From a virus: a stretch of 64,000 nucleotides of DNA. The translations under genes were made by a program, and so were the position numbers. The number at the start of each line of letters is the position of its first letter. Within the stretch, counting starts at the first letter, position 1. This document shows, piece by piece, positions 19,382-19,464 of this stretch. Location: UHGV virus genome UHGV-0054069, one strand, 5' to 3'. The notes beneath the pieces are model-generated. The model saw nothing but the letters and a program-made list of their open reading frames with translations, did not search any database and had not been told where the DNA came from.

Positions 19382-19464
19382 ATGGGACGATGTTAAGACA
19401 CTAAGGCATGTGCGTAAGCCTCCAAAACTTACTCAAAGGGGTTCGAATCCTCCGTCCCATGCCA
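19382..19464 (+). tRNA. tRNA-like gene, atypical (83 nt; best anticodon arm has 9-nt loop CCTCCAAAA)
   Basis: perfect acceptor ATGGGAC/GTCCCAT, T-loop TTCGAAT, CCA; interior does not fold as canonical class I or II. Confidence 0.4.

Follow-up and report, generated by a model that had tools for sequence, protein, structure and literature searches.

The window analyzed here, a 64,000-nucleotide (nt) stretch of viral DNA (UHGV virus genome UHGV-0054069), derives from a Felix O1-like myovirus (Ounavirinae) and harbors, inside the transfer RNA (tRNA) cluster of this phage, an 83-nt element at positions 19382-19464 of the plus strand. The region of the element is 99% identical to Escherichia phage pEC-M719-6WT.1 and is matched by 259 phage records, belonging to phages of Escherichia, Salmonella, Shigella, Citrobacter and Pectobacterium. 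The element itself, referred to below as the long allele, is matched over most of its length by 233 records from several genera. Its organization, that of a probable, atypical gene for a tryptophan tRNA (tRNA-Trp), and the stretch immediately upstream are given below in window coordinates.

19382-19464, plus strand: whole gene, atypical tRNA-Trp(CCA) with encoded CCA (109.9 bits with covariance model R1; ARAGORN -mt call; covariation)
19382-19388, plus strand: 5' strand of the acceptor stem, ATGGGAC (positions 1-7), with its partner at 19454-19460
19389-19397, plus strand: connector GATGTTAAG, 9 nt at positions 8-9, where tRNAs have 2 nt; essentially constant in the variants
19398-19413, plus strand: D arm, ACAC-TAAGGCAT-GTGC (RNAalifold stem; covariation)
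19414-19432, plus strand: anticodon arm, GTAAG/CTTAC (19414-19418 with 19428-19432) around the loop CCTCCAAAA (19419-19427); covariation
19422-19424, plus strand: anticodon CCA for UGG (Trp), between T (U33) and A (A37); TCCAA, absent from the patterns that retrieved most variants, is invariant in all of them
19433-19437, plus strand: variable region TCAAA, 5 nt (class I length), invariant in all variants
19438-19453, plus strand: T arm, with GGGG at 19438-19441, T-loop TTCGAAT at 19442-19448, CCTC at 19449-19452 and C19453; the outer pair covaries
19454-19464, plus strand: 3' strand of the acceptor stem, GTCCCAT (19454-19460), discriminator G73 (19461) and encoded CCA (19462-19464), read from the sequence
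19341-19381, plus strand: promoter-like stretch of putative function, with TTGACA at 19341-19346, 17 nt, TAAGCT at 19364-19369, and TATAGT at 19376-19381 abutting the gene

The perfect acceptor stem, the T-loop and the encoded CCA lie where the initial annotation, made from the sequence alone, had placed them; CCA is encoded or nearly encoded by 24/24 of the tRNAs called by ARAGORN in the cluster. The D stem consists of three Watson-Crick pairs (19399-19401 with 19410-19412) and an A·C opposition (19398/19413) and encloses the 8-nt loop TAAGGCAT, which contains GG, while the T-loop carries the TTC motif. G19389 could pair with C19453, extending the acceptor stem to 8 base pairs (bp); otherwise C19453 faces A19437. 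Overall, A·C oppositions are present at three stem ends (10:25, 31:39 and 49:65), and provided that they count as stacking layers, the helices of the cloverleaf are canonical in total length (12 layers for acceptor plus T, 10 for D plus anticodon). Between the D and T stems there are exactly as many bases as in a canonical class I tRNA. The distance of 25 nt between the acceptor stem and the GTAAG stem, compared with about 19 in a class I tRNA, agrees with the initial remark that the 5' part is too long for this class, but the cause is the 9-nt acceptor-D connector and not an oversized D arm. This connector, GAYGTTAAG, is the sole true expansion of the gene (+7 nt).

Variants of the element were gathered from phage records, IMG/VR and metagenomes; 12 distinct sequences were used for RNAalifold and 19 for pair counts. 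The metagenome scan contributed the new variants L145, L123, L130, L127, L132 and L124. Chance matches made up about 60 of 84 in the IMG/VR scan with the 15-mer GGGACGATGTTAAGA, a scan with an upstream 15-mer gave zero additional variants, and a gapped-pattern scan of genome contigs returned three matches only, all due to chance and located in unrelated metagenome-assembled genomes. BLAST of the metagenomic L145 copy and its tRNA-Ser found no isolate nearer to them.

RNAalifold analysis of the MAFFT alignment revealed a four-helix cloverleaf with 8 acceptor, 3 D, 5 anticodon and 4 T pairs, identical to the one drawn by hand, and eight of these pairs showed compensatory changes. The larger set, in an alignment fitted to a covariance model, displayed standard pairs in 98.9% of cells and two-sided changes in 9/20 pairs; the RNAalifold result is independent of this model and gave the same answer. 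The comparison with homologues that had been suggested as a check was thus favorable: 0/500 shuffles of the 19 variants reached any of the five measures used, and the covariation score of 0.346 dropped to 0.06 or less when partners were slid by 1-3 columns. In the acceptor stem, pair 1:72 is AU in 11, GU in five and GC in three variants, and pair 2:71 is UA in 16 and CG in two. The middle pair of the D stem is UA in 12, AU in six and GC in one variant, and its inner pair is CG in 17, UA in one and UG in one, with CAC/GTG, CTC/GAG, CGT/ACG and TAC/GTG as the stem versions found; the outer pair of the T stem is GC in 16 and UA in two variants. G73 is invariant throughout. These patterns indicate that the element is a structured RNA under selection. 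A distinct form was observed in a clade of Pectobacterium/Yersinia phages (Wc4-1, Arno162 and P778; L002:2999-3084, L116:164-249 and L117:165-250), which has G1-C72, C2-G71 and a bulged T in the 3' acceptor strand (GTCC-T-CGC); the bulge occurs in three independent records and is therefore no sequencing error.

The connector is identical in 18/19 distinct variants, including the distant L145, Wc4-1 and P778, a constancy that is partly by construction since GAYGTTAAG was part of the search patterns; PC79-13 has a single T-to-C change. It is unchanged in Wc4-1, P778 and L145 although their stems and D loops differ, and its expanded length, in place of the 2 nt of a tRNA, was found in 19/19 variants. 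Three connector bases (ATG, 19390-19392) could pair with CAT in the D loop (19407-19409), and this 3-bp pairing, 96.5% paired with one-sided changes only and two breaks, would form a pseudoknot with the D stem. As an alternative D stem, ATG/CAT was not adopted; the CAC/GTG stem changes on both sides.

By pairing, the anticodon arm comprises 5 bp and a 9-nt loop, CCTCCAAAA, as initially described. All five stem pairs are kept across the variants (100% of cells paired) and four of them covary, the versions GTAAG/CTTAC, AACGG/CCGTT, GACGG/CCGTT, GTAGG/CCTAC and ACTTG/CAAGT being found around a constant loop. In standard numbering, the same bases read equally well as a Watson-Crick and covarying 26:44, paired 27-30:40-43, an unpaired C31·A39 and a 7-nt loop CUCCAAA, with U33, CCA and A37 in register; ARAGORN draws this loop, closed by the C·A mismatch, both in -mt mode and after shortening of the connector. 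The pairs originally noted are retained, but the '9-nt loop' is best read as a normal 7-nt Trp loop, with 31·39 unpaired and 26:44 Watson-Crick, in an arm of canonical length. Position-by-position comparison showed that CUCCAAA is the anticodon loop of E. coli tRNA-Trp, the sequence used being 100% identical to the annotated tRNA-Trp of 5426 E. coli genomes (one copy per genome). Among the variants, the first loop base is C or U (C/U-U-C-C-A-A-A), and 31·39 is C·C in the Wc4/P778 clade. A mismatched 31·39 was also observed in normal-length tRNA-Trp of phages from unrelated lineages, namely Erwinia phage phiEa21-4 (C·A) and Vibrio phage K566 (A·C; L120:304-377). Opened 31·39 recurs in phage Trp tRNAs, including some accepted by standard finders.

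Beyond the anticodon at 19422-19424, the element carries further tryptophan features, G73 at 19461, A1-U72 and G3-C70, but has U2-A71; other variants have G1·U72 or G1-C72 instead of A1-U72. The anticodon, G73 and A1-U72 reportedly constitute the identity elements of E. coli tryptophanyl-tRNA synthetase (TrpRS), as determined by Himeno and colleagues in 1991. A1-U72, G2-C71 and G3-C70 are minor elements of the E. coli TrpRS identity set. In the window, UGG makes up 1.2% of codons in crude open reading frames (ORFs), and the E. coli host has a single tRNA-Trp gene per genome.

Together, ARAGORN (24 tRNAs) and Rfam, which adds Glu, cover 18 amino acids in the cluster. The tRNA-Glu in question (17598-17669) scores 53.7 bits with Rfam and is annotated in the record of the closest relative, and was not listed by ARAGORN, so that the finders disagree on this member of the cluster. 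In addition, a sub-threshold tRNA-Tyr(GTA)-like gene of 88 nt was identified at 18065-18152 (22.8 bits against the Rfam cut-off of 29; default ARAGORN is silent), which is 96% identical to the S19cd copy called tRNA-Tyr by ARAGORN and whose equivalent was entered as 'Pseudo (Tyr)' in the Felix O1 paper (PMC3185647). With Tyr counted, Trp is the only amino acid without another tRNA in the cluster, and the assignment of the element to Trp is supported because it fills this sole missing isotype.

A covariance model constructed from the element aligned ordinary tRNAs end to end at 15-38 bits, compared with 85-113 bits for members of the family. Relaxed ARAGORN searches, suggested with the initial annotation, had a mixed outcome: the -ps modes gave nonsense calls, and the -mt mode called mtRNA-Trp(cca) on exactly these 83 nt. 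Default ARAGORN called tRNA-Trp(cca) once 4 or 6 connector bases had been deleted in silico. In the inspected rows of phage records, the element is unannotated or overlapped by nothing more than very small 'hypothetical protein' calls. In the Felix O1 genome paper (PMC3185647), 22 tRNAs obtained with tRNAscan-SE are reported, and the word Trp does not appear. Our literature searches found no description of a tRNA-Trp of the Felix O1 group or of 9-nt anticodon loops in phage tRNAs. Standard tRNA finders have a blind spot for such genes.

At the same locus, related phages carry another tRNA-Trp. In S19cd and SUSP1, an unrelated gene of 71 nt, with CCA as its anticodon, lies behind the same upstream sequence, and an HNH gene comes next. 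About 27 records, among them wV8, S19cd, SUSP1 and O157 typing phages, carry this short allele, which is annotated in some as tRNA-Trp, tRNA-OTHER or pseudo; ARAGORN calls the S19cd copy tRNA-Trp(cca), and the near-identical SUSP1 copy is not called and is unannotated. The short allele shares with the long one its position, the loop CTCCAAA with CCA anticodon, G73, A1-U72 and a non-canonical D side, but differs in its unrelated sequence, its 3-bp D stem with 5-nt D loop, its normal U31-A39 and the adjoining HNH gene, which the long allele lacks. The replacement cassette (L087:1650-2139 in S19cd and L088:1673-2162 in SUSP1) consists of the short tRNA-Trp(CCA) and a gene for a 134-amino-acid HNH-type endonuclease, an assignment that scores 18.3 bits with Pfam, below the cut-off, and rests mainly on the annotation of the SUSP1 record. 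It looks like a homing-endonuclease-driven replacement of alleles within the tRNA cluster.

The annotated 76-nt tRNA-Trp of Erwinia phage phiEa21-4 (Ounavirinae, Kolesnikvirus; NC_011811, 24578-24653, L154) is the best non-family match of the model in that cluster (35.4 bits). This gene, from the same subfamily, has in common with the element the anticodon arm core CGGCCTCCAAAACCG with C31·A39, but possesses a 2-nt connector (TA), a 4-bp D stem and the 3' end TCA, and occupies another site within the cluster, between tRNA-Gly and tRNA-Thr. E. coli trpT and the RF00005 model share with the element the four-helix cloverleaf, the loop CUCCAAA, G73, A1-U72, GG in the D loop, TTC in the T-loop, a 5-nt variable region and the encoded CCA; in contrast, the element has a 9-nt and not a 2-nt connector, A·C at 10:25, 31:39 and 49:65, a Watson-Crick 26:44, U2-A71 instead of G2-C71, and a score below the cut-off. 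Thus it departs from a canonical tRNA in two formal respects, namely the length of its connector, which is not 2 nt, and its scores with Rfam and default finders.

Two other kinds of unusual tRNA resemble the element in part. It resembles tRNA-Sec (RF01852) in its extended 5' half and in an acceptor stem that may reach 8 bp (G8-C65), but lacks the UCA anticodon, the long variable arm, the 6-bp D stem and the bacterial 8/5 arrangement. A tRNA-Sec assignment was rejected because of the CCA anticodon, the 5-nt variable region and the 3-bp D stem; the arrangement would be no more than 8/4, and the score of 18.5 bits lies far below the cut-off of 47. In sufD, sufJ and the yeast mitochondrial tRNA-Thr (8-nt loop), the extra base lies inside the loop beside the anticodon and the arm is lengthened. 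In a comparison drawn from general knowledge, the Watson-Crick pairs of the anticodon stem enclose more than seven unpaired bases in these enlarged-loop tRNAs as well, but the arm of the element is canonical in length and its surplus unpaired bases are the mismatched 31·39.

Taken together, the sequence features suggest that the element is probably a functional, although structurally atypical, tRNA-Trp(CCA) of an Ounavirinae (Felix O1-like) phage, in agreement with the 'non-canonical tRNA' among the options initially listed: its cloverleaf is conserved and covarying, it has a CCA anticodon, and ARAGORN recognizes it in -mt mode. It appears to descend from a bacterial or phage tRNA-Trp and to work like one. 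Beyond a conserved cloverleaf with Trp features, we infer that the gene would be transcribed with the phage tRNA cluster, either from the weak promoter-like site upstream or by read-through; that RNase P, with U at position -1, would trim the 5' end; and that exonucleases would shorten the 3' end as far as the encoded CCA. Host TrpRS could then charge the tRNA by way of the CCA anticodon, G73 and A1-U72, and the product would decode UGG, supplementing the single-copy tRNA-Trp of the host during infection. The connector is assumed to be looped out of the tRNA core.

Several observations weigh against this interpretation. Default ARAGORN found 24 tRNAs in the 17.5-22.6 kb interval and Rfam at its gathering score found 23 in the cluster of the window, in both cases without the element. 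It gave no match to RF00005 even at E ≤ 10 (the gathering threshold of this family being 29 bits), and a permissive Rfam search of the region returned only tRNA-Sec RF01852, with 18.5 bits (E = 0.16) against a cut-off of 47. Mildly relaxed ARAGORN also failed, and -ps80/-ps60 produced just tRNA-??? (aagg) and an antisense Met. Among characterized tRNAs of the cytoplasmic type, we know of none that has a 9-nt connector at positions 8-9; such a connector could disturb the U8-A14 and 9-12-23 core contacts. The three stem-end A·C oppositions count likewise, and 31:39 is a standard pair in each of the 24 other tRNAs of the window. The variant set is phylogenetically shallow (effective sequence number 1.16 in the model), the folding energy of the single sequence is unremarkable (z = -1.02 versus chance), the Wc4/P778 clade has the extra bulged T in its 3' acceptor strand, and the metagenomic L145 copy has lost two acceptor pairs.

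A further step would regard the expanded connector and the opened 31·39 as an adaptive redesign, yielding a tRNA that can be charged and can decode, yet serves poorly as a substrate for a tRNA-targeting defense nuclease or modification enzyme of the host, or whose decoding is loosened towards UGA in a Hirsh-like manner; we consider this rather unlikely. According to papers cited in PMC12916289, phage tRNAs that evade or neutralize tRNA-cleaving defenses of the host include T5 tRNA-Lys (against PARIS), T5 tRNA-Tyr (against retron PtuAB) and mycobacteriophage tRNAs with altered anticodon loops. Like these defense-escaping tRNAs, the element is a phage copy of a host tRNA that departs from the host version in nuclease-recognized regions, and they may be functional analogues, a likeness that serves as a lead only. 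Literature searches found no tRNA-Trp-specific defense nuclease of enterobacteria.

Among the alternatives to a functional tRNA-Trp, a tRNA-like RNA that serves mainly in some function other than decoding is unlikely. Such an RNA would act as a decoy or sponge for a host tRNA-targeting defense nuclease or modification enzyme, or as punctuation for the processing of the polycistronic tRNA transcript by RNase P/E, with the connector as its functional site. The essentially invariant GAYGTTAAG in copies with diverged stems and D loop suggests a specific partner, the standard tRNA models fail on the element, and the neutralization of tRNA-cleaving defenses by phage tRNAs is documented for other isotypes in papers cited within PMC12916289. 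However, a decoy or processing signal would need neither the exact Trp anticodon loop nor G73, the encoded CCA or the filling of the only missing isotype. Moreover, another tRNA-Trp(CCA) functionally replaces the element at this locus in related phages, and its normal-length relative is an ordinary annotated tRNA-Trp. Decoding and non-decoding roles are not mutually exclusive.

Still less probable is a recoding tRNA, whose widened loop or altered D region would read UGA (Hirsh-type) or a four-base codon and thereby cause programmed read-through or +1 frameshifting in a phage gene. The G24A change in the D arm lets E. coli tRNA-Trp read UGA (the Hirsh suppressor) and expanded loops cause frameshift suppression, precedents which, with the 9-nt loop in Watson-Crick terms and the clearly altered geometry of the D side, speak for such a role. 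The 'frameshift/suppressor' option of the initial annotation nevertheless finds no support: the surplus unpaired bases are 31 and 39 and do not adjoin the anticodon, the central seven bases form the loop of E. coli tRNA-Trp in an arm of canonical length, and C31·A39 is present in a normal-length phage tRNA-Trp as well. TGA behaves as an ordinary stop, ending 20/72 crude ORFs of the window with in-frame extensions of 0-39 codons, and there is no sign of its avoidance or recoding.

Finally, a decaying pseudogene, in which a 7-nt insertion would have inactivated an earlier tRNA-Trp that persists only because the region is young or hitch-hikes with its neighbors, would account for the failure of tRNA finders, the three stem-end mismatches, the disrupted core connector, the two broken acceptor pairs of L145 and the 3' end GCTA instead of GCCA in Tribble, but this 'decayed gene' option is highly improbable because each of the four helices shows compensatory double changes, four of five pairs in the anticodon stem vary around identical loops, more than 230 records spanning several genera show no indels, and the anticodon loop, G73 and T-loop are invariant.

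Upstream of the gene, the TTGACA at 19341-19346 is perfect, the TAAGCT that follows 17 nt later is poor, and a promoter scan retrieved GTGATA-18-TATAGT (9/12) ending at 19381; the T at position -1 of the gene is conserved. The motifs of the sigma70-like promoter originally proposed are thus present and lend it weak support, but the number of promoter-like sites in the cluster is not above the shuffled expectation, and those seen here do not exceed chance for the region. The upstream stretch is conserved before the long and short Trp alleles alike, and the folding of the spacer 19241-19381 is not significantly better than that of shuffles (z = -1.67). Within this spacer, TAAGGAGGTGGTCTGTATCTC (19283-19303) occurs once in the window and is a 12-13-nt near-perfect complement of the 3' end of 16S ribosomal RNA. 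Its core AGGAGGTGRTCTGTATCTC was found exactly once in each of 30 related loci, including the distant metagenomic L145 and phiEa21-4 (L154:24412-24430); in the latter, too, the tRNA-Trp gene is found downstream of the core, from which tRNA-Gly separates it. No conserved ORF is present downstream of AGGAGGTGRTCTGTATCTC/TAAGGAGGTGGTCTGTATCTC in the related loci.

Elsewhere, the cluster is a mosaic of small insertions: pEC-M719-6WT.1 contains a 414-bp ORF (L001:3921-4334) between tRNA-Gly and tRNA-Thr, genes that are just 6 nt apart in the window (20138-20143), where this ORF is missing. A sub-threshold Rfam match to permuted transfer-messenger RNA (33.5 bits against a cut-off of 47, E = 0.0004) at 18829-19014 overlaps tRNA-Ile and the following spacer, and is probably driven by the tRNA part.

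No published description or annotation of the element was found in the literature searches and inspected records. The significance would be modest for a simply unannotated tRNA-Trp and larger if the connector is an adaptation (defense evasion, altered decoding). If the adaptive redesign is correct, the element would be the first tRNA of the cytoplasmic type, natural and functional, in which a connector of 9 nt at positions 8-9 has been shown to be tolerated. A functional RNA would in any case be a natural tRNA with canonical helix lengths, seven extra conserved bases in the core connector and an opened 31·39, and as such would probe the tolerance of the L-shaped core, RNase P, TrpRS, EF-Tu and the ribosome. 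Since the host has a single tRNA-Trp gene, a structurally distinct copy supplied by the phage could plausibly counteract the depletion or cleavage of tRNA. Provided that the RNA functions, one gene is absent both from the 22 tRNAs published and from the annotations inspected among the more than 230 matching records, and Felix O1-like phages, which find wide use in typing, biocontrol and therapy directed at Salmonella and E. coli, would carry tRNAs for all 20 amino acids.

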